The notes: generated by a model not told the origin, from the letters alone. A DNA stretch of 32,000 bases from Candidatus Heimdallarchaeota archaeon B3_Heim (GCA_003144275.1 NJBF01000037.1:1-32000); one strand, 5' to 3'. Positions 20,377-30,703 are shown, counted from the first letter of the stretch. Numbers and translations are program-made.

Positions 20377-22598
20377 TTATACTCTCTTTCTTCTCGAGAG
20401 AATAGGAACTGAGATAATGACTCCCATGATGCTGATAAACTCCCATCCAGGTGAGAGACTTGGAATGGTGTTATTATCAGTTGTCTCACCAGTGAATGAC
20501 TCCATAAGCTCAAATTTGAAGATTGATATTTCAGAGCCATTAGTAGAAATGGAACCAGATATTAATTCAAGCTTTTCAAGTACACCAGTTTGTCTATTCC
20601 ACTGAAATTCGAGAACTCCGTCATCAGAAGGTTGAGTTTCATTATAATTCCATGTTAGTCGATAATAATCACTTTCTTCAATTAAATAAGTATTATCGAA
20701 CATTTTGAAGTTGGATAGATTTCCATAAATTGGGAGAAAAAGGAAGTTATTAATTCCGTTTCCTAGATAATCATCTGTATTTTTATGTATTTCAACTTCT
20801 ATACCCCATTCAACAAATTCAAACATTATCAGTTTGAGTTGATCTCCCTGAGCTAAAGATAGCGGGATATTTTCTTCTGTGTTTTTATTACGAAACCATT
20901 CTGTTAAATCAACTTCAGCTGATGCACCACTATATTCAGTCAAACTATAGATGAAAGTGTCACCAACTGAAATTGAAAAGTCCTCTTGAGTAAAGCTATC
21001 ATCAGGTTTTTCATCGATTTTTGGTGGATAAAATCCCTTTCTAATCCAAATATTATCCCAAAAAACTAAGGTTTCAGTGTTAATTTCTTGGTTATCAAAA
21101 CCAAAGCCAATATTTCCACATTTAAAGACGTTAAAATCATCATTTGTGAAAATTATATAGGATTCTAGCTCTTCTTCTTGAAGAAATACCTGAGTTATTT
21201 GTTTGTCACTTTCTACAGCAACCGCTATGATTAAACGCCCCCATGTTAGTTGTGATTCCATTGGCATGGAATAAAAAGTAGATTTTTCGCCTACCTCATT
21301 TTGAGCTCCAAACTCAAGAACATTTCTCTGATAGCTATAGCGAACATACTGAACGTCTGCACCACTGTTGAATCGCCATCCAAGTAACAATATATCTCCA
21401 TTTGCAATGTGAATATCATAATCAACCTCAATGGTGTAACTGTACAAGTCTTCATAAGTTTCCAAACCAGATGTTGTTAACCAACCACTTTCTGAAGAAA
21501 CATTATTGAAATAATATCCACGCAACCATTCATTCTCAATATCCCAATTTCCTTCTGGTCCTCCATACCAGACATAAGGATCAAGATTATAGCTGGAAAA
21601 GTCATCATAGTAAATAGTTTCATCAGTTGGGTGGTCTGGAGGCGTGTGATATCCTGTATATACACTAATATTGTCAAATCGTGCAGAAGAGTTATAATAT
21701 AACCCAAAACCGATATCCTCTAAATTAGGAACATTCATCATCATACTTGAGATAACTGGTTCTCCATTTACCCAGAGATCAAGTTGTCCACCAGCTACAG
21801 CCATATGTACAACGGCCCATTTGTCCGTTGGAAATTGATAGTCAAAATCATATAAACTTCCATAAGAATCAATATAGTGAGAGTATCCCGATGTTGATCC
21901 TAATTCCATTACTGCATATCCAGAGTAATAGTTGAAAATGAAATGAAACTGTTCTTCTCCATACCCTGACAACAAATTTACATCAAAGATTACTGTATAT
22001 TCACTCATATTGAAGATCGTATCGTCTAATACTATATCATCCCACATTTCATTTGTACTAATGCCATTAAGACTATTATCAAGAAAATCACATGCACCGT
22101 TCATAACAGTCCAGTATCCATTATCTACTTCAAAATCTTGGAAATATACAAGATCATCAGGAGCCATGACTAAATTTGTCAGACAACTATTTGAAAAATA
22201 GTTCTGGACAGGATGAGTCACACATCCACTATCCGGCAGGTTAGCAACAAGAGAATCATTGCTTTCCATTGGGATTACTTGCATCAGATCTTCTGGCGAC
22301 ATCCCAAACACCAATACTTTTCGACCAGTCTGGGTCATTCTTCTCTTGCCTTTGACGGGTAACTCGTCTAACGAAGTTACAAGGGAATATGACCTAAAAG
22401 CTAAGTAAATTTTTTTGTCATCACCTCGGCGTTGATGAAGTACGGGCGGGACACCTTTTAAGTTTGTAAGGGAGAGAGAGGTCAGCGAATATGAGAAATA
22501 TGAAATTGTCGGACAAAAATGATCATGGCTTGAGGAATAGTTGTTATTAACATCGGTAAAAAGAGAAGGATTAAAAGCATTTTTTTCTGATTTTTCAT
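20377..22598 (-). pseudogene. Secreted surface glycoprotein (two lectin/LamG-like domains plus PGW-TM-basic CTERM anchor), interrupted by element copy C after the signal peptide
   Basis: ATG 22598 (GGAGG upstream) encodes MKNQKKMLLILLFLPMLITTIPQA. Removing the element plus one CATG gives ...PQA-MAPDDLVYFQDF..., 620 aa in total. C-terminus SPGWEFISIMGVIISVPILSRRKRV. Confidence 0.85.
22165..22527 (-). mobile_element. Complete 363-bp non-autonomous element (copy C, CATG to CATG)
   Basis: CATG at 22165-22168 and 22524-22527. Reverse complement of copy B with about 13 substitutions and a 4-bp indel in a CT-rich tract. Both sub-terminal TTGTC-N-GACAA palindromes are perfect. Confidence 0.93.
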
Positions 22599-22757: not shown

Positions 22758-23408
22758 ATGCAAATTTACTTGATTAGACACGGAGAAAGTACAGGTAACA
22801 AAGAAAAAGCTTTTCAGGGATGGAATAACGTTCATTTAAGTGAACAGGGAAAAATCCAGGCTAAAAAATTGGCTGATTATCTTTTCGGGGAAAAAATTAA
22901 CCTAAGGATAATATTTTCTAGCCCTCTCATTCGAGCAATGGAAACTGCAGAACCATTAACGATTTGTTCAACTAGTCCTGATATAATTACAGTTGATGGA
23001 TTTAAATCGATTAATGTCGGTGAATGGGGAGGAATTTTGATATCAAGGGTGAAAGAGGATTTTCCAAAGGAGTACAATATTTGGAAGCATTCACCAACAA
23101 AATTCCGTTTTCCGAAAGGGGAATCCTTAACTGATGTTCACAACCGCTCCCAAGCTTCTCTTATACATATCTTGCATAAATATATTGATTTTGGTGGAAA
23201 TATCGCAATAGTTTCACATATGATTACTATCAAAGCGTTAGCATTGTGGATGCTTGGGAAAAATCTAGGAAACATCTGGAAAAAAGAATATACAGTGCCT
23301 AATACTGGTATAATGGTTTTTAAAGTGGAAAAGGAAGAATCGACCGATTTCAGTTTCCAGCGCGTTGAAATAAATAATCCTATACCACATTTAGAGTCTA
23401 CAATCTAG
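22758..23408 (+). CDS. Histidine phosphatase (phosphoglycerate mutase) family protein
   Basis: IYLIRHGES, SSPLIRAMETA, FPKGESL and IVSH motifs. Confidence 0.9.
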   Translation: MQIYLIRHGESTGNKEKAFQGWNNVHLSEQGKIQAKKLADYLFGEKINLRIIFSSPLIRAMETAEPLTICSTSPDIITVDGFKSINVGEWGGILISRVKEDFPKEYNIWKHSPTKFRFPKGESLTDVHNRSQASLIHILHKYIDFGGNIAIVSHMITIKALALWMLGKNLGNIWKKEYTVPNTGIMVFKVEKEESTDFSFQRVEINNPIPHLESTI

Positions 23409-24043
23409 GAAGAGAGAGATTTCTTCCCACAATGCGTACAGAAGATACTACCTGCCTCTAATTGCCTTCCACAAGATGGACATTGTGAACCAGATATCGG
23501 ATCTGATAATGTTTGCTTATTCAAAGTCTTATCAACATTCTCAGGTGGATAATAACGTTCTTTATACTCTGAAGTTGATCTTTCTTCAATTAATGCACCT
23601 AAGGTTCCCGCAATTAGAAAAAATCCATAAGCTGTAACAAGAGTGTATCCAAAGGATATTGTTGGTAAAAAAAGTCCAATTAAAATAACAAACGCCCCTA
23701 TTCCTCCAATGAGCGTTATGACTGCCCCCTTTTGAGATTTATTAAGGATAAATGGACCTGGTTTGCTGGATGTTACAACTATTAATCCGTTTAGGACTCC
23801 TGTCACTAGAAAGAATGGAAAGGCTATTACGATTGCCAAACCAAAGTCTATATGTTGGGCAAAAATAGACAATAATATAGGAAAAACGCCAATTCCACCA
23901 ATAAATGTGATCAGAGCTTCTTTGTAATTCTTCTTCAATCTGTACACCTCTTCGGAAGTAGGAATTATATTTGAGAGTACTGTTCTCGTGTTTATATGAT
24001 TTTGAATAGAGGTATACATTCTCACCATCCTTAGCCTAATCAA
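23405..24043 (-). CDS. Four-TM membrane protein with internal duplication and C-terminal zinc ribbon
   Basis: Two similar two-helix units (ITFIGGIGVF...FFLVTGVL and ITLIGGIGAF...FFLIAGTL); C-terminal CPSCG...FCTHCG. Confidence 0.75.
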   Translation of the reverse strand: MIRLRMVRMYTSIQNHINTRTVLSNIIPTSEEVYRLKKNYKEALITFIGGIGVFPILLSIFAQHIDFGLAIVIAFPFFLVTGVLNGLIVVTSSKPGPFILNKSQKGAVITLIGGIGAFVILIGLFLPTISFGYTLVTAYGFFLIAGTLGALIEERSTSEYKERYYPPENVDKTLNKQTLSDPISGSQCPSCGRQLEAGSIFCTHCGKKSLSS

Positions 24044-24058
24044 CTCACTAAGTTGTCC

Positions 24059-24760
24059 CTACTCTGGTGTTTTCCTTTTTATTTGTATTTTAGATATTTT
24101 CGTTTTGATTATTGTGGGAGGGACAGATTCTTCTTCCATTGGTCTTTTTTCTAGGATAGATTTTGGAGGTGTTTTACTCCTGATATCTTTTTTGTGCTTT
24201 TGTTTGAATCCTAGTGTGCTAGGGGGAGGTATAGTTGTTTTGTTGGGAATTTCTGCGGTGATGCGATGTGGAGGAGTCTTGTTTATTATCCGATTTCGTT
24301 TCTTTTCAGCAATACCTCTACGAGTTGGTGGGACATTTTTATGATCCTGGATTTTTTTTCTTCGTGGGGGGACTTTTCGATTTACTAGGCCTTTTTTACG
24401 TCTTGATTTTGGGAGGCTCCCTTTAGTAGATGGAGTTGCCAATTCTTTCCTACCGTGAGTCTGAGTAACAGGAGGAAGATTGTTCGTGCTAGGTATTTGC
24501 TTTTTTCTCTTTTCTTTTGTTCCATGACTGGTGGGATAGGTACCAGATTCTTTTTTTATTAGTCCATTCTCATTTTTTCGCGCAGGAGGTAGCTTAAATT
24601 GCTCTTTCAAATCATTAGGAGTTTTTTGTTGAATAGTAGCAACTTTTTCTTTCATTGGAGTTTTCTCTTTGATTGTATCCTTCGGCTTTTTTGATCGAAC
24701 TTTGAATCGAGCCACTTTGTACATACCATCCTGCACTATTTTCAAAAATAACTTCTTCAA
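24059..24760 (-). CDS. Lys/Arg/Pro-rich low-complexity protein with recurrent KTPP/xVPP motifs
   Basis: 233 aa. Sits in the operon 15 bp and 48 bp from its neighbours. About 13 periodic x-[TVLI]-P-[PK] motifs. Confidence 0.65.
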   Translation of the reverse strand: MKKLFLKIVQDGMYKVARFKVRSKKPKDTIKEKTPMKEKVATIQQKTPNDLKEQFKLPPARKNENGLIKKESGTYPTSHGTKEKRKKQIPSTNNLPPVTQTHGRKELATPSTKGSLPKSRRKKGLVNRKVPPRRKKIQDHKNVPPTRRGIAEKKRNRIINKTPPHRITAEIPNKTTIPPPSTLGFKQKHKKDIRSKTPPKSILEKRPMEEESVPPTIIKTKISKIQIKRKTPE

Positions 24761-24808
24761 TTAAATGTACATTATTCGATTTTTAACAATTTGGAAATTG
24801 CGTAAGGA

Positions 24809-25393
24809 TTATTTTCCCAGAATAAATCCAATTCCAGAGAAAACGAAAAAGAGACCGTATAATATTCCAAGAAAATCAGATGCAAATGCTCCAGCAATTA
24901 GAAATAGAATCCCGAAGATAAGAAATGTGAAAATTGCCGTCCATTCGGCGGAAGGCCCCCTCTCAGACTGAGCAGTAATTCTAATGAATTGATAGCGAGT
25001 GAAACTTCTTATTAACAACGCTGTTGAGACCACTAAATACGGAAAAGCAAGTAAGGAAGGGACTGCAATATGAAGTTCGATGAATTCATTTGAAGGCATC
25101 ATATTAATTTCAAAGGATAATAAAACTTCTTGAAAAATAGGAATAAAGGGACTAGTAAAGACAATTACTAGAGGAATGATATTTGCAAGGGATATAAAGT
25201 AGATTTCGTTTAAAGTGGCATGATGATCAACGTAGTAGAATATCCGTAGGAAGTACAATATAGTAATCGCGGTGTAAATGGATAAGAAAAGGATGTTAAG
25301 AGCTAATGTATCCTTATTCTGTATAAAAAAGAAAATTGTAGCTGATACGCCAATGAGCATGATAAACCAAGCGATATTATGTCGTATAGCCAT
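24809..25393 (-). CDS. Multi-pass membrane protein
   Basis: 194 aa, about six hydrophobic segments, 18 bp downstream of the RING gene. Confidence 0.75.
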   Translation of the reverse strand: MAIRHNIAWFIMLIGVSATIFFFIQNKDTLALNILFLSIYTAITILYFLRIFYYVDHHATLNEIYFISLANIIPLVIVFTSPFIPIFQEVLLSFEINMMPSNEFIELHIAVPSLLAFPYLVVSTALLIRSFTRYQFIRITAQSERGPSAEWTAIFTFLIFGILFLIAGAFASDFLGILYGLFFVFSGIGFILGK

Positions 25394-25411
25394 AAGTAAT
25401 CAATAAACTCC

Positions 25412-26524
25412 TTATTTTCTGTATTTTTTCTGGAACATTTGAATTATTTTCTGATAACTGGGTCCTGAAATCCGGATCATTTTTACATTATTAATGGGTT
25501 TATTACAACGGCTACAAATATTAGACACTAGAAGCCATTTTTGAAACTCATCAGCATGAGATGGATGTTTACAACGGGGGCAAATGACTACTTGTTTATC
25601 TGATTCTGTGGGAAATTCATAGCAATAAATACATCGAAAATCGTCCTTTGAAATGTTCTGACCTGCTGGGGTTAAACTGGCAATAAGTGCAGGAGTTAGC
25701 TTCCTCTTTGTTCTCTTTGGCATGTGTATTGGAGGAGCGACCTGAACATTTGATCTCTGGGGACTTCTACTCGCTCTTTCCTGTACTTGAGTTACACGTG
25801 ATGGCTGTGGAGTTGATCGACGAGTTTCTACTGATGTTCTAGAAGATCTAACAGCTCTTCTCTGTGATTGAAAATCTCTAGTGGAAGTTCTAGAAACCCG
25901 TCTAAAGGGAATAATTACAAATTTGAGTATATAATTTTGAAAGAAGGTTAGGATACTGAAAAGTAAGAAAAATAATGACGATAGTTCAATTGTTTTCTGA
26001 TCTAACCAAAAAATGGTGAAAATTACAAGAAAACTTGCATTTAACACAATTATCGATTCAGAAGGAAATCGTCGTCGAAATATGAAAATATTAGGATAGG
26101 TTCCAGAATAGTATCTTCTAATTAGAATTCCGAGGATTGCAAAGAAGGGTAAACAAAATATTAGACTAAATAAATTTAAAAACAGATAGAAAGAATCTAG
26201 CTGAAATAAATTTAGGTTTAAATCTAATTCAATAAATGTTGCATGGAGAATATTTTCAGTATCGTCCAATGTGGCAGTAAATGCAGTCAAACTCCCCCCG
26301 ATAGCAATCAGGGCAGGAATACTAATGAAAATTGCTGAAGCTAGTGGAGCATTATATGATCGGTAATATCGCCATTCATCTACTAGTTTGATTAGTAAAA
26401 TAGCAACGAAAGTGAAATAAATTAACGTTATCGAGAGAGAGCTTTGTGGGTTAACGATTTGGCTTAAGAACGCAAAGACCAATCCAGTGAGAAAAACAGA
26501 AATATAGACATTTCTTCCAACCAA
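25412..26524 (-). CDS. Multi-pass membrane protein with C-terminal RING-like domain (putative E3 ligase)
   Basis: About six to seven TM segments, an Arg/Ser-rich linker, then CIYC-x14-CPRCKHPSHADE...W...CSRC. Confidence 0.8.
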   Translation of the reverse strand: MVGRNVYISVFLTGLVFAFLSQIVNPQSSLSITLIYFTFVAILLIKLVDEWRYYRSYNAPLASAIFISIPALIAIGGSLTAFTATLDDTENILHATFIELDLNLNLFQLDSFYLFLNLFSLIFCLPFFAILGILIRRYYSGTYPNIFIFRRRFPSESIIVLNASFLVIFTIFWLDQKTIELSSLFFLLFSILTFFQNYILKFVIIPFRRVSRTSTRDFQSQRRAVRSSRTSVETRRSTPQPSRVTQVQERASRSPQRSNVQVAPPIHMPKRTKRKLTPALIASLTPAGQNISKDDFRCIYCYEFPTESDKQVVICPRCKHPSHADEFQKWLLVSNICSRCNKPINNVKMIRISGPSYQKIIQMFQKKYRK

Positions 26525-26547
26525 ATAGATTTCACGACCTCATCTTC

Positions 26548-27369
26548 TCAATCATAGTCATATTCTAAGAACATTGTTTTCCCTTCTGCTAAGGGTAGTA
26601 GTGTGCTGATTAATTCCGGAAGACTTTCTAAAGGACAGTTTAAAACTTCATGACGAGGTTCTTCCCATGTTTTCAAATCTTTTTTTAGCCTGAAGATTTT
26701 GAATCCATAATTTCTTCTGGATATTTTAGTTGGATCAATAACGAGGGCTATCGGCGCCGCGAGTTGAGATCCTTTAGTTCCTAATTTTTGATAGCGAACT
26801 TGTGTTCTATAATCCGTTGTACTCATAAATGCTCCATAAGAAGGATGTGAATGGTACCATCCAAGAATTAGTTCCTTTTTCTTCCTACTTTCATTAAATA
26901 CTCGCACCATGCTTTGGGGATCCTCGATTTGGGCATTAACATTTGTGCCATGACCTACTGGAAATGCATCTGTAATCACCAGACACGCAAGGGGAGTGTC
27001 TTTATTTTCAATATGTCCTGTTAACAGCCCTATAACTTCAACCCATTCTACTTGAGGAATTGTTGAATTTGCATACTTTAGAGCATGGAGACTTAGACGG
27101 ATATAGGCTTTTAATTGAAGTTTCACTCTTGCTGGATCAATTTCAGGATCTAGATCATCAATATCGAGTAAGTCTTCTTCTCCCTGAGTGCGGTCATTTT
27201 TCAACGAAAACGTCTCCTCTGAAGGAGGAATTTTTTTGGATTCAGTAGTCGGGAATTTTAAAGTAAGAGTTAAATTATCTGGATCATAATTCATGGAGGT
27301 ATCTCTCAGAAGAAGTTCGAATAAATTCCGCGGTTTTTCTTTTTTTTTATCTGGCATCAAATAGACCAC
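26548..27369 (-). CDS. JAB1/MPN/Mov34 (JAMM) metalloprotease, Rpn11/CSN5-like
   Basis: EVIGLL...GWYHSHPSYGAFMSTTD...LVIDP JAMM motif. Confidence 0.92.
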   Translation of the reverse strand: MVYLMPDKKKEKPRNLFELLLRDTSMNYDPDNLTLTLKFPTTESKKIPPSEETFSLKNDRTQGEEDLLDIDDLDPEIDPARVKLQLKAYIRLSLHALKYANSTIPQVEWVEVIGLLTGHIENKDTPLACLVITDAFPVGHGTNVNAQIEDPQSMVRVFNESRKKKELILGWYHSHPSYGAFMSTTDYRTQVRYQKLGTKGSQLAAPIALVIDPTKISRRNYGFKIFRLKKDLKTWEEPRHEVLNCPLESLPELISTLLPLAEGKTMFLEYDYD

Positions 27370-27402
27370 TTTTGCTGGTACTTTACTAATCTTCTCAAAT
27401 CC

Positions 27403-27930
27403 TCACCACTTCTTTTTTGCATACTTCTTAGTGATTTTTTTAGCCTTTTCTTTGAATTTACCCTTATTTTTCAGGTATTCCACTGCAGCTTTCTTGTTAA
27501 AAACATCATGAGGGTTGGTGTAAGCTTCATCAATATTGAACATGGCTAAAATTGAGTATATCACTGTGGTAACGTTTTTTGACGGAGACCATCCTTGTGG
27601 TTTCCCTACCAAGTCGGGGTCGACTAATCCAAGACAAATATTCCGTTTTCCCTTGTATTCATCAGGTTTGGGCCAAAAATTCGGGTGCCAAATCGGGGTA
27701 TGTAATCTTACGAAAGGAGGAGAATAGGGGTAATTGGAACCAAATTTGATTTCGAGCATAAACTTCCCGTCTTGGTAGGGAGTACCTTTTGGACCTTCGA
27801 GAAGAATAGCTAAGTGCTCTACACTTTTTTTCTCTCCTGGGAAAGCTTTTAGCTGTTTAATCGTCTTTTGCTTGTAAAGAGTTTTTAATTGATTATAATC
27901 TTCTGCAATACGTTTAATGCGAATAGACAT
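27403..27930 (-). CDS. Ubiquitin-conjugating enzyme E2
   Basis: GPKGTPYQDGKF...YPYSPPFVRLHTPIWHPN...ICL...WSP UBC-fold motifs with catalytic Cys. Confidence 0.95.
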   Translation of the reverse strand: MSIRIKRIAEDYNQLKTLYKQKTIKQLKAFPGEKKSVEHLAILLEGPKGTPYQDGKFMLEIKFGSNYPYSPPFVRLHTPIWHPNFWPKPDEYKGKRNICLGLVDPDLVGKPQGWSPSKNVTTVIYSILAMFNIDEAYTNPHDVFNKKAAVEYLKNKGKFKEKAKKITKKYAKKKW

Positions 27931-27936
27931 GATAAA

Positions 27937-29175
27937 TTAACCTTCTAACTTTAGTGTAAGATATGCTTGTGATCCATCGTCAAAACCTGTTACAAGAACT
28001 GTCTCACAATCCCTTATTTCAGCTTGAGATATTGTTTGTTCCATAGATATTTCCCCAACTTCAGAAGAATCAATCCTAAATATCATAGGAGGAAATTCAG
28101 GGTCAATTGGGTAATTTTTATTATGAGAAAATTTCTCTATTAACCGTGTTAAAGGAAAGTTTCGTTTAACTTTGATACGAAACATTGAAGTTCTTCCCCG
28201 TCCACACATCTCGCATTTGGGATTACGTGGTTTTTCAATCTCATAAAATTTACCCGTTAAACCATTATAAATCAAATAGTTCAATTGGATATTCCCCAAT
28301 TTCTTATCTGGCTCTGGTGTGTGAATATGATGTAGTATTTTGACAGCCTCTTGTGATTGAAGAGATGCCATTACGCAATTTATCGTGATAACTGTCGGCT
28401 CGTGATTATCAATTATCTGAATAATCTGGTTGATCGAAAATTGCTCTTCTTGGGGAAAATATTCTTTGAGAAGTTTATTTGCATATAAAACCACATCTTT
28501 AACTTCATTTGACTTTAGAATATTAACTGGTTTTCCGTGTTTTTGTTCGAAGTGTAACTGTCCTTTAAGAATACAATGAGCTGGTCTACGAGGTTTTCCC
28601 ACAAGTGTACATGCTCCAAGCTGATCTTGATTACGTTCAGTTAAAGGATCACACTCCAAGCATGCGTTATTGAACGGAGAAACTACATATGTATGGCCAT
28701 TGTACACTGAAGTGCCTGCATCAATGAGATATTTCTTGTTATGAACTGCTCTTCGATTTAATTCAGATCTAGCTTCAATAGAGTCAAGACCAGCAATATA
28801 AAAATCGACCTTGCTGTAAATATGAGGAGGTACATCTTGTAAGGGGCAATCATAAGCATCAATGGTGATGAATGGATTCATTTCACGAAGTCTTTTCGCT
28901 GCGATCTTTGCTTTTGAAGCACCCTCTGGTGCACCAATAAACAATATCTGACGATTCAAATTTGAATATTCTATTGTATCAAGATCCACAAGTATTAAGT
29001 GTCCAACACCAACCATAGCCAAGTTTTTAGCTATTTCTACGCCTAAGCCCCCTATTCCCGCAATGAGGACTGAGCTTTGTTTTAGAATTTCCTGGTTCCA
29101 TCCAGGAAGACGAAATTGACGATCAAAGCGTCGTTTTTCCTCATGTGTTAGTGTTTTACTTGTGAAATTTGACAT
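27937..29175 (-). CDS. Ubiquitin-like activating enzyme E1 (ThiF fold, UBA3-like catalytic-Cys region, C-terminal extra domain)
   Basis: RFDRQ, GIGGLG, DLDTIEYSNLNRQ, CLEC and CEMC Zn pairs, and ACTLVGKPRRPAHC (PxCTxxxxP-like). Confidence 0.93.
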   Translation of the reverse strand: MSNFTSKTLTHEEKRRFDRQFRLPGWNQEILKQSSVLIAGIGGLGVEIAKNLAMVGVGHLILVDLDTIEYSNLNRQILFIGAPEGASKAKIAAKRLREMNPFITIDAYDCPLQDVPPHIYSKVDFYIAGLDSIEARSELNRRAVHNKKYLIDAGTSVYNGHTYVVSPFNNACLECDPLTERNQDQLGACTLVGKPRRPAHCILKGQLHFEQKHGKPVNILKSNEVKDVVLYANKLLKEYFPQEEQFSINQIIQIIDNHEPTVITINCVMASLQSQEAVKILHHIHTPEPDKKLGNIQLNYLIYNGLTGKFYEIEKPRNPKCEMCGRGRTSMFRIKVKRNFPLTRLIEKFSHNKNYPIDPEFPPMIFRIDSSEVGEISMEQTISQAEIRDCETVLVTGFDDGSQAYLTLKLEG

Positions 29176-29200
29176 ACCATTTGCTCCTCTGAGAGTGGGA

Positions 29201-29551
29201 TTATCCTGCAGTACTTACAGGAATAATTAGGACTTCTAGTCCATCTTCCAGATCATAATTTGACAATACATCATCCGAATCCAATGTTCGTCCACTAATT
29301 GAAAGGTGAAAGTCTTGTGTATCTAGTGCAAATATTTCACCAACTGTTGCGGCTAATTCTCGTACAGACAGTTCTGGATCTACAGTTAGTTTTTCTTGTT
29401 TTTCATGGCGTCCAATTGTTGATCGGAAGAATAATGTTATTCGTTGTCCATTTGGGATTTTGGAACGCGGAACTTTCGATTGTATCGATGAATCGTTTTG
29501 CCCCTCTTCCTCTTCTTCTTCAAATTCAATAAACTCTTCATTTTCCGACAT
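29201..29551 (-). CDS. Ubiquitin-like protein 1: acidic N-terminal extension, C-terminus ...PVSTAG
   Basis: Beta-grasp pattern (ITLFFRS...LTVDPELSVREL...FHLSISGRTLDSDDVLSNYDLEDGLEVLII). ATG at 29551 preferred over the track start at 29698. Confidence 0.88.
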   Translation of the reverse strand: MSENEEFIEFEEEEEEGQNDSSIQSKVPRSKIPNGQRITLFFRSTIGRHEKQEKLTVDPELSVRELAATVGEIFALDTQDFHLSISGRTLDSDDVLSNYDLEDGLEVLIIPVSTAG

Positions 29552-29800
29552 AATTACGGCTTCCCTAGTATTCTCGGTGATAAATTCTGGAAAGATTTTG
29601 TCCTTAACTTTCGGAGGTGTTCCAGTTCTTAAAATTTGTAAAGAGAATACAATCAGTTTCATCGTAATCCTTCCATAAATATCTATCTGAATTTTCAACT
29701 ATATGCCAGTTAATTGGGATTGAAGAGTTTCTATCTAGTTTTAATTATTTTCAACCTTTTATTTTTGCAAAAATTGGGAAAAAGTGAATTAATCCCCTTA

Positions 29801-30154
29801 TTAATTCCATCCAGCGGTTGAATGAGGAATTAAGAGGATTTCATCACCATTTTCGATTCCATAATCTCCGATTGGAGAGCTTTCATCCAGAGTTCGTCCA
29901 GCATGAGATAAGTGAAAATCATCTGGATCTAATCCAAATATATTCGCTAGTGTATCTCGGACATCTCTCACGGGTGTTTTTTCACCGACGGAGAGTTTCT
30001 CTGTTCTCTCAGGGCCAACGGTTGATTTAAAGAAAATATTCTTCTTGGGTCCAGAGGTAGTCCCTGTTACGGGTGTCTTCGACTGTGCAGGAGTTTTTGC
30101 CTTTACAGACGATGTTTCTTCAAGATCAAAATCTATATCTTCAAAGTCACTCAT
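29801..30154 (-). CDS. Ubiquitin-like protein 2: acidic N-terminal extension, C-terminus ...PHSTAG-WN
   Basis: Paralogue of Ubl1 (FFKSTVG...IFGLDPDDFHLSHAGRTLDE...YGIENGDEILLIP). Confidence 0.9.
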   Translation of the reverse strand: MSDFEDIDFDLEETSSVKAKTPAQSKTPVTGTTSGPKKNIFFKSTVGPERTEKLSVGEKTPVRDVRDTLANIFGLDPDDFHLSHAGRTLDESSPIGDYGIENGDEILLIPHSTAGWN

Positions 30155-30217
30155 TTTTTATTCACTTTTTTTTCATTTATTGATTGTGTTCCAATTATTT
30201 GTGATACATGGAACTCA

Positions 30218-30285
30218 TGTAACTTACGTAACCCACCCATTTATAAAACTTACGAAATACCCGTAACACCCGAAATCTATAAATA
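30218..30285. promoter_or_regulatory. Divergent promoter region with TATA-like boxes and 9-bp periodic CG(T/A)AA(C/T)-like repeats
   Basis: TTTATAAA at 30240-30247 and TATAAATA at 30278-30285. Hexamers at 30218, 30227, 30253, 30262 and 30271. Confidence 0.55.
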
Positions 30286-30322
30286 TGGGAATAATCAATA
30301 TTTCTTTTAAGAGGCAAGTTAA

Positions 30323-30703
30323 GTGTCGAAAGAAGCTCAAAATGTCAAGATTTCTAGTAAGGCATGGGAGATGCTTCGTTGGGCAAAATTTGAACTAACT
30401 GAGAAATCTTATAGCGATGTACTCATCAAATTAGATGGTACAATTCAGAACAGAGCTCATTCTCTTCAAGAGGAACTTAAGGAGTTTGATGAAGGTCGTC
30501 ATAGGATTGAAATGAAAATCCCAGGAGAAGGGAAAGTAACTAAAAGTTCGAAAACTATTCTACTAAGACCAGATGCTCATAAAATCTTAAGTCGTCTCAA
30601 ACTTGAAAGTAATACATCTGCGTACACATTTTCAGATGCTATTGAGTTTCTGATAAAACAAAATTCAGCTATTTGGGAAAGTATTCCAGATCGCTTGAAA
30701 TAA
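30323..30703 (+). CDS. Putative DNA-binding protein with two tandem RHH/VapB-antitoxin-like repeats
   Basis: NVKISSKAWEMLRWAK...SYSDVLIKL and TILLRPDAHKILSRLK...TFSDAIEFLI both fit the [KT]TI.I....Y..L...K...SFSDVI..L pattern. GTG start. Confidence 0.65.
   Translation: MSKEAQNVKISSKAWEMLRWAKFELTEKSYSDVLIKLDGTIQNRAHSLQEELKEFDEGRHRIEMKIPGEGKVTKSSKTILLRPDAHKILSRLKLESNTSAYTFSDAIEFLIKQNSAIWESIPDRLK

Follow-up and report, generated by a model that had tools for sequence, protein, structure and literature searches.

The window analysed here is a stretch of 32,000 nucleotides from Candidatus Heimdallarchaeota archaeon B3_Heim (GCA_003144275.1 NJBF01000037.1:1-32000), which is contig C86 of a Hodarchaeales (Asgard) genome of 3.9 Mb that is 94% complete. 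Between 23405 and 30154 its minus strand carries nine open reading frames (ORFs) that encode, in this order, two ubiquitin-like proteins (Ubl2 and Ubl1), an activating enzyme (E1), a conjugating enzyme (E2), a JAMM metalloprotease, a ligase (E3) combining transmembrane (TM) helices with a RING domain, a six-TM protein (6-TM), a protein that we call KTPP, and a four-TM protein with a zinc ribbon (4-TM Zn ribbon). We found that this cluster is a variant of a known archaeal Ubl operon type, and in the open-access literature we did not find it described. Seven of the nine ORFs are firm, among them the two Ubls, E1, E2, JAMM and the membrane RING. The features of the locus are as follows:

29801-30154, minus strand: Ubl2 (Pfam ubiquitin 1.2e-8, Rad60-SLD 2.6e-5)
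29201-29551, minus strand (longest ORF to 29698): Ubl1, 116 residues (Pfam ubiquitin 1e-3, below cut-off)
27937-29175, minus strand: E1 activating enzyme with a C-terminal extension that is a candidate ubiquitin-fold domain (ThiF 2e-52)
27403-27930, minus strand: E2 conjugating enzyme (UQ_con 1e-26)
26548-27369, minus strand: JAMM/Rpn11-like metalloprotease, candidate Ubl processing and deconjugating enzyme (JAB 2.6e-15)
25412-26524, minus strand: membrane RING E3 (AF2 model, RING/U-box matches by Foldseek and VIA, alignment)
24809-25393, minus strand: 6-TM protein, 194 residues, regarded as a paralogue of the membrane domain of the E3 that lacks the RING (hhalign, model, synteny)
24059-24724, minus strand (longest ORF to 24760): KTPP, 221 residues from the conserved ATG (no Pfam match)
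23405-24043, minus strand: 4-TM protein, made of two 2-TM repeats, with a C-terminal zinc ribbon (Zn_Ribbon_1 2.7e-6)
30323-30703, plus strand: candidate regulator, 126 residues, VapB/RHH (ribbon-helix-helix)-like (PF02697 1.9e-5, below cut-off)
30155-30322, no strand: intergenic region between the divergent genes, carrying a TATA-like box (TTTATAAA) and repeats that contain TTACG (read from the sequence; putative function)

A preliminary description of this DNA had proposed nine co-directional genes in the order given, separated by 6-48 bp apart from about 250 bp between the two Ubl genes, and all nine ORFs lie where it had placed them. Measured between the longest ORFs, the gaps from Ubl2 to the 4-TM gene are 102, 25, 6, 33, 23, 18, 48 and 15 bp. 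Ubl1 has a conserved ATG at 29551, and the resulting start (MSENE.F) occurs in all 12 of the 12 genus copies aligned; with this start the gap to Ubl2 becomes 249 bp, as had been described. The 49 residues that the longest Ubl1 ORF would add at the N-terminus were considered as coding sequence and rejected, since they are kept only in the closest species and the genus shares the internal start. For KTPP the start is most likely the 13th codon of the longest ORF, at 24724. A hydropathy scan gave about six TM segments each for the E3 and the 6-TM protein and about four for the zinc-ribbon protein. A scan for sigma-70-type promoters and terminators found fewer promoter-like sites than in shuffled sequences, the model being uninformative for an archaeon. 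A search for matching sequencing runs listed DNA runs from marine-sediment and cold-seep metagenomes, with small word shares, and no RNA run.

Paired modifiers and conjugation enzymes

The two modifiers share a common layout. Ubl2 begins with an acidic N-terminus, followed by a tail with VKAKTP..SKTP, a beta-grasp domain and a C-terminus that reads ..IPHSTAG and then WN; Ubl1 has a tail with IQSKVP..SKIP, a beta-grasp domain and ..IPVSTAG directly before the stop codon. They form a paralogous pair with 47% identity, and Ubl2 is 82-100% identical across the genus. The preliminary description had noted paired Ubls that do not end in Gly-Gly, and this was borne out in both: the penultimate residue is Ala, and the STAG end is found in every orthologue fetched, from four Heimdallarchaeial families and from Lokiarchaeial loci (P-H-STAG, P-V-STAG or P-A-STAG). 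The Gly of STAG is followed by nothing or by one to four variable residues (WN, WR, IK, SIN, IYY, Y, I, YF, LKC or LYFI). A fixed Gly with a variable extension is the pattern predicted by processing after Gly, and we therefore infer such processing; by sequence, Ubl1 is encoded in its mature form and Ubl2 with two extra residues (WN) that would need removal. Separately, in several members of the genus an ORF of 63-88 residues lies between Ubl2 and Ubl1 (L018:10409-10675, L019:10524-10727, L020:10953-11147, L028:10567-10770 and also L016:9388-9579). This small ORF can be aligned among four genus members, and no counterpart of it was found in the 249-bp gap of the window.

Each of the three enzymes has the residues expected for its class. 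The best solved relatives of the E1 are UBA1 (1.8e-34), UBA3 (5e-28, over residues 30-326) and UBA2 (7e-27), with UBA5 reaching merely 3.5e-12, and the residues invariant in 19 sequences comprise G40xGG43xG45, four zinc cysteines (C172, C175, C321 and C324) and C189 and C201, the last two being candidates for the catalytic cysteine. For the E2, whose solved relatives include UBE2R2 and Ubc13 (about 1e-16), H82-P83-N84 and C99 are invariant in 16 sequences, Lokiarchaeial ones included. The JAMM protein is closest among solved structures to the Rpn11-like protein of Caldiarchaeum (6fjv, 9e-12), followed by CSN5 and Rpn11, and its E..HxHP..S..D metal motif is invariant in 17 sequences. A further feature of the JAMM protein (26548-27369) is an extension of about 90 residues before the catalytic domain, which is poorly conserved, variable in length within the genus and shorter in other families.

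Judged by these motifs, the cluster is of the eukaryote-type archaeal Ubl/E1/E2/RING/JAMM operon kind, with a Gly-ended beta-grasp modifier, E1, E2 and JAMM all recognizable. The preliminary description had likened it to the Ubl/E1/E2/RING/Rpn11 clusters of Caldiarchaeum and Asgard archaea, a likeness that the enzyme classes and catalytic motifs support. The operon of Caldiarchaeum subterraneum encodes ubiquitin, an E1-like and an E2-like protein, a small RING finger and an Rpn11-like protein, and its Ubl precursor has a short C-terminal extension that is processed by the JAMM enzyme (PMC3082918, PMC5654768, PMC6043591). The present locus likewise unites the five functional classes in one cluster, its RING-type E3 being a candidate, with a JAMM protein nearest to that of Caldiarchaeum, but where Caldiarchaeum has a Gly-Gly modifier and a small soluble RING, it has two Ala-Gly Ubls, a RING E3 of 370 residues with six TM helices, a RING-less paralogue of that E3 and a basic protein rich in a lysine motif. 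In a Helarchaeial operon the E1/E2/RING cascade has been reconstituted, and the pro-ubiquitin there also carries a C-terminal extension (10.1101/2023.07.25.550441). The Asgard ubiquitin-ESCRT clusters (Hatano et al. 2022, PMC9192718; 10.1101/2023.07.25.550441) come from the same phylum and contain the same enzyme classes; unlike these, which have GG-ubiquitin, soluble RINGs and ESCRT/UEV genes, the present cluster has no ESCRT gene, and a cluster of that kind stands separately in the same genome on contig C10.

Asgard homologues of Ufm1 have also been reported (PMC12962969). The resemblance of our Ubls to UFM1 is that a single C-terminal Gly would be exposed by removing a two-residue extension; the differences are that they match ubiquitin and Rad60-SLD and not Ufm1, that the E2 is of the UQ_con and not the UFC1 type, and that the E1 is much closer to UBA1 than to UBA5.

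The predicted membrane ligase and its RING-less paralogue

The E3 consists of six TM helices (residues 1-208, with beta hairpins in the outer loops), a disordered linker rich in Ser, Arg and Thr (210-273) and a C-terminal domain with a RING/U-box fold (289-369), as seen in an AF2 model with a predicted local distance difference test (pLDDT) score of 77.8. All of the top Foldseek matches of the C-terminal domain are RING or U-box domains with probabilities of 0.9-1.0, and VIA gave Z scores of 8.7 to 3lrq and 7.8 to Ring1b (2ckl_B). In an alignment of 27 sequences the candidate zinc ligands C298, C301, C315, C318, H323, E326, C337 and C340 are invariant; W330 lies four residues after E326, and the same H-x2-E-x3-W arrangement occurs in the Lokiarchaeial homologue. 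This protein is the only E3 of the cluster, and the polytopic E3 of the preliminary description stands. Following the positive-inside rule, its N-terminus, its conserved basic loops (around 50-60 and 135-152) and its RING would all be cytoplasmic. The sources of homologues found for the E3 and the 6-TM protein label them Hodarchaeales, Hodarchaeum mangrovi, Heimdallarchaeota (LC_3 among these) or Promethearchaeota, and every one carries the annotation hypothetical.

Eukaryotic polytopic RING ligases include Hrd1 and gp78, with a RING-H2 domain, and Doa10 and MARCH, with a RING-CH domain (C4HC3). The E3 shares with them a multi-pass domain joined to a putatively cytoplasmic RING, and its C-C-C-C-H-x-C-C order and the Trp at the fourth residue past ligand 6 are both reminiscent of RING-CH and RING-H2. 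The correspondence is incomplete in each case: against the C3H2C3 pattern of RING-H2 the invariant set reads C C C C H E C C, His320 not being conserved, and against RING-CH the C4-H order agrees, but the spacing is not the same and Glu stands at ligand position 6. RINGv is absent among the Pfam families listed at E <= 10 for five RING segments (one list being the best 25 of 41). For the TM module of the E3 and the 6-TM protein there was no Pfam match, and no Hrd1, Derlin, Doa10 or Pex protein appeared among the Foldseek, VIA and Atlas matches listed. With TM-domain homology undetected and Glu as the sixth ligand, the likeness to Hrd1/gp78 and Doa10/MARCH is one of analogy and not of membership. 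Fold searches with the membrane modules of both models (Foldseek against the PDB, VIA-wide and the ESM Atlas, together with Atlas features) brought up nothing beyond generic helical bundles and designed proteins; these model-based searches give no family name, which does not in itself make the fold a new one.

The gene following the E3 encodes what we regard, from profile and model comparisons, as a paralogue of the E3 membrane domain that has no RING. The AF2 model of the 6-TM protein (pLDDT 85.7) has three helices, a hairpin, a helix, a loop and two helices, which is the order found in the independently modelled E3 membrane domain. When the two profiles were compared with hhalign, they matched at 88% (E 2.9e-6) over 127 collinear columns. 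When the E3 was cut down to the membrane domain, the comparison scored 39.9, whereas reversed profiles scored 14-15 and none of 30 block-shuffles exceeded 28.7. Against a merged Hodarchaeales and Lokiarchaeia profile the match rose to 95.7% (E 1e-8, 157 columns; reversed controls 0.1-0.3%); the Lokiarchaeial membrane-domain profile alone gave a weaker match to the 6-TM protein (18%). Aligned pairwise by BLASTP, the 6-TM protein has no significant match to the E3 membrane domain (E 0.28), the relation being detected by profile-profile comparison only. The preliminary description had counted three unexplained genes downstream of the E3, from which the 6-TM gene can now be withdrawn. A complex prediction for E3 residues 1-212 with the 6-TM protein (score 0.18, mark 0.32) gave no answer and is counted neither for nor against binding.

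The 6-TM family was found in 51 of 301 sampled genomes of the phylum, which belong to four families of one class, and in none of 26 other families. In the simplest history, the membrane domain of the E3 would have been duplicated within Heimdallarchaeia. The Pex2, Pex10 and Pex12 proteins, which are paralogous TM-plus-RING proteins forming one ligase of the peroxisomal membrane, one of them with a degenerate RING, provide a parallel for an E3 encoded beside a TM paralogue, although here the paralogue has no RING at all. The parallel has further limits, given that no sequence or fold match to the Pex proteins was found, that a hetero-oligomer is only a presumption for our pair, and that its conserved loops are predicted to be cytoplasmic, with no evidence of a pore.

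Conservation of the cluster and a shared lysine motif

Synteny of the downstream genes in relatives had been set beforehand as the test that could refute a nine-gene operon, and the outcome differed from gene to gene. The order Ubl2-Ubl1-E1-E2-JAMM-E3-6TM is kept in 11 of the 12 genus loci fetched, the remaining one (L014) ending inside Ubl2. Among the loci of three other families (L023-L026), the adjacency of E3 and 6-TM holds in two, one of which has relocated Ubl and E1 genes, and in the third the 6-TM gene lies about 1.1 kb from the E3 on the opposite strand; synteny of the 6-TM gene was thus upheld across four families. ORFs resembling KTPP lie beside the 6-TM gene throughout the genus and are convergent to it in L023, L024 and L025, even where tblastn had missed them (three families), so that KTPP too passed, in the genus and two families. 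The 4-TM Zn ribbon failed: full-length orthologues occur at the same position only in the three closest species (G013, G020 and G018), with unrelated genes there elsewhere, and it is probably a recent lineage-specific neighbour and not a core member. The divergently transcribed gene of 126 residues is syntenic in all genus loci that reach it and was matched in L025 and L026, representing two further families. From these results the conserved unit consists of eight genes and the divergent regulator, instead of nine genes.

Two observations concern the edges of this unit. In the region 30155-30703, the intergenic stretch that the divergent gene shares with the cluster has the TTTATAAA box and TTACG-containing repeats that include the palindrome TTACGTAA; the divergent gene and this stretch are a candidate dedicated regulator and its operator. 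In G018, the co-directional run seen in the window is interrupted, the 6-TM gene and KTPP being separated there by an opposite-strand ORF of 180 residues with about five TM segments (L015:7453-7995).

Related operons occur in Lokiarchaeia, where three loci (L038-L040) contain two STAG Ubls, E1, E2, JAMM and the membrane RING, with no 6-TM gene. The Lokiarchaeial E3 has 354 database homologues, whose source labels are mostly Lokiarchaeota or Promethearchaeota. By sequence homology, the membrane-RING system is present in at least two Asgard classes and the 6-TM twin in part of one class. The divergent neighbour of the Lokiarchaeial operons encodes a coiled coil of 367 residues whose start (..KPIPKHQIREKTP) and end (..IPKYKIKSKTPSKY) both show the motif of the KTPP termini; this protein is not homologous to KTPP and provides an independent observation of the motif. 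The same loci also encode a protein of 265-273 residues (L038:2585-3382, L039:2871-3680 and L040:2519-3340), in which one or two TM segments lie at the N-terminus and a Ubl-like domain at the C-terminus, its last residues being ..IPSRKE with no terminal Gly. It would be a membrane-anchored Ubl domain that is not conjugatable, and an ORF of 223 residues from an unknown family adjoins it.

KTPP is a disordered protein of about 20% Lys and 12% Pro, with a net charge of +46 for the longest ORF of 233 residues, and its orthologues have 16-29% Lys, 10-17% Pro and net charges of +33 to +55. An Atlas model of the window protein has a pLDDT of 0.40, the Atlas search gave no usable relatives, and identity within the genus ranges from 25% to 85%. 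KTPP contains [IVL][KR]xK[KT]P four times, with the copies grouped towards its two ends, and its orthologues have two to six motif copies; most of them have 8-10 copies of K[TIVKL]P, compared with about three expected from shuffles. Across 3712 ORFs of the genome the motif [IVL][KR]xK[KT]P occurs in 23; among these, multiple copies are confined to KTPP, and Ubl2 has one. Ranked descriptively by K[TIV]P density among 3429 ORFs of the genome, KTPP takes the first place (p 1e-8), Ubl2 the third and Ubl1 the eighth. In relaxed form, the motif has a fixed place in the N-terminal tail of 15 of 15 Ubl2 orthologues and 8 of 12 Ubl1 copies. The second place in the density ranking is held by an ORF of 1003 residues elsewhere in the genome (G000:C54:8818-11829; six copies, p 5e-5) with VKFKTP near its C-terminus, which is possibly a further carrier of the motif.

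SUMO has a disordered N-terminal tail that carries a substrate lysine motif (psi-K-x-E), and it ends in GG. The present system is similar in that a lysine motif is common to the Ubl tail and a candidate substrate, and Ubl2 passes the Rad60-SLD model (24.4 bits against a cut-off of 23.8). It is different in that the motif is hydrophobic-K/R-x-K-T/K-P and not psi-K-x-E, that the Ubls end in Ala-Gly, and that recognition of the motif by the E2 is putative.

Proposed function and alternative explanations

On balance we think it rather probable, by a little better than an even chance, that the cluster encodes a self-contained, eukaryote-type system for motif-directed Ubl conjugation and deconjugation at the cytoplasmic face of the membrane. 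The JAMM enzyme would trim the WN extension of Ubl2 and later reverse conjugation, and the E1 would adenylate the terminal Gly of the Ubl and hand the Ubl on to Cys99 of the E2. The disordered linker would hold the RING/U-box domain of the E3 in the cytoplasm, and the E3 and its RING-less twin may form a hetero-oligomer. Since the best conserved segments of both membrane proteins are basic loops on the presumed cytoplasmic side, we read the pair as a docking platform and not as a channel. The motif lysines would serve as acceptors, and KTPP would be a substrate with multiple sites, or a scaffold, dedicated to this system at the membrane, while the motif in the Ubl tails would permit Ubl chains, as the tail of SUMO does. 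A more speculative elaboration, which we consider doubtful in its full form, is a SUMO-like membrane-anchored machine in which a heteromeric E3 puts Ala-Gly Ubls on the motif lysines of KTPP and of the Ubl tails, giving a cross-linked layer or signalling platform at the inner membrane face, and in which the membrane-RING part predates the split between Heimdallarchaeia and Lokiarchaeia.

Several points weigh against motif-directed conjugation by a paired membrane ligase. None of the Pfam RING models reached its cut-off on the E3 (the best had 19.8 bits against 27.4, E about 0.02), and with Glu at ligand position six both zinc binding and activation of the E2 are assumptions. A search of the 6-TM profile against 1.84 billion representative proteins (E <= 0.001) gave 23 clusters, all of 57-239 residues and none of E3 size, so the paralogy rests on the comparisons of profiles and models, and the absence of the 6-TM gene from the Lokiarchaeial operons means that it is not essential to the system overall. 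The lysine motif was defined after these proteins had been viewed, making its statistics post hoc and descriptive; the KTPP-like proteins of two families (L023/L024 and L025) have zero or one strict copy, and the motif could equally be a binding site or a site of T-P phosphorylation.

The same genome contains separate Ubl systems. On contig C10 (L029, G000:C10:15000-33000) there are a ubiquitin of 80 residues ending ..TGG followed by MVR, a zf-RING_2 protein of 70 residues, an E1, an E2 and a UEV-like protein of 247 residues; contig C57 (L030, G000:C57:1-13000) has a Ubl ending ..KGG together with an E1 and an E2; and contig C58 (L031, G000:C58:1-10000) has a prokaryote-type set with an E1-like protein, two E2-like proteins and a Prok-JAB protein. 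The present cluster is therefore one of at least four Ubl systems in the genome and the only one with a membrane ligase. As these separate systems include the GG-ubiquitin/UEV cluster on another contig, a dedicated pathway is the better reading; the preliminary description had also preferred one, and at least three other E1/E2 sets in the genome, among them the GG-ubiquitin/UEV set, speak in its favour.

The alternative to which we give most weight, while holding it well short of an even chance, is quality control similar to endoplasmic-reticulum-associated degradation (ERAD), with the E3 and its paralogue tagging misfolded or orphan membrane proteins for Cdc48 and the proteasome and KTPP being either a bystander or an adaptor. 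Eukaryotic quality-control ligases have the layout modelled here, in which a polytopic TM domain is followed by a basic disordered linker and a RING at the C-terminus, and an Rpn11-like JAMM protein is encoded alongside. Archaea moreover contain Cdc48 as well as the 20S proteasome (PMC13328587). But the cluster has no Cdc48, proteasome or chaperone gene, none of the ERAD or Pex proteins named above was among the matches listed for its TM module, and quality control would leave unexplained the motif that the Ubl tails share with KTPP and that is conserved in two classes.

Two further explanations seem unlikely to us. In the first, the Ubls provide a non-degradative signal, marking membrane proteins or a scaffold for ESCRT-type sorting, vesicles or envelope organisation. 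Asgard ubiquitin is indeed read by UEV/ESCRT-I (PMC9192718; bioRxiv 2023.07.25.550441), and the Lokiarchaeial motif protein, as a long coiled coil, is scaffold-like, but the UEV/ESCRT-linked cluster on C10 has its own GG-ubiquitin, E1, E2 and small RING, and no ESCRT gene lies near the present cluster. In the second, which we find improbable to a similar degree, the system comprises only the seven genes from Ubl2 to 6-TM, KTPP and the 4-TM Zn ribbon being unrelated neighbours and the motif likeness compositional. KTPP is a low-complexity and fast-evolving protein, separated from the 6-TM gene by an opposite-strand ORF in G018 and convergent to it in other families, as a bystander might be; however, its adjacency outlasts inversion in three families, its motif is about threefold above composition-preserving shuffles in most orthologues, and the motif recurs in the Ubl tails and in the non-homologous Lokiarchaeial coiled coil. 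An anti-viral defence module of the bacterial Bil or CBASS-Cap2 type (Ubl, E1, E2 and JAB) is highly improbable, because although the 'E1-E2' models of PADLOC match the adenylation domain of the E1 (best 2.9e-17) and its JAB model matches the JAMM protein (3.8e-5), these matches fall far short of the 1.8e-34 obtained with eukaryotic E1s and are confined to the Rossmann part, PADLOC matched neither the E2 nor the Ubls nor the E3, and the single-copy cluster has stable synteny across the genus and several families, unlike defence islands.

If dedicated conjugation at the membrane is the function, the conserved cascade, with its predicted polytopic sole ligase and paralogous partner, would place membrane-embedded ubiquitin-type ligation among archaea too, in two Asgard classes at least. 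Current placements put Hodarchaeales nearest to eukaryotes, and to our knowledge every archaeal ubiquitin cascade studied by experiment uses small soluble RINGs; in the open-access literature we found no description of an archaeal or Asgard transmembrane RING ligase or of an ERAD-like system. The origin of membrane E3 systems (ERAD, MARCH and Pex-like logic) becomes testable with a compact set of eight genes, and the motif in the Ubl tails and the neighbouring protein offers a concrete candidate substrate and site, which is usually the missing piece in the reconstitution of an orphan E3. The SUMO-like machine, if real, would be a candidate prokaryotic precedent for the membrane-embedded ubiquitin ligases of eukaryotes.

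Downstream of the cluster, at 20377-22338, lies an ORF of 653 residues that relatives (L013 and L015) match only from about residue 57-59 onwards, the N-terminus of the window protein being different.

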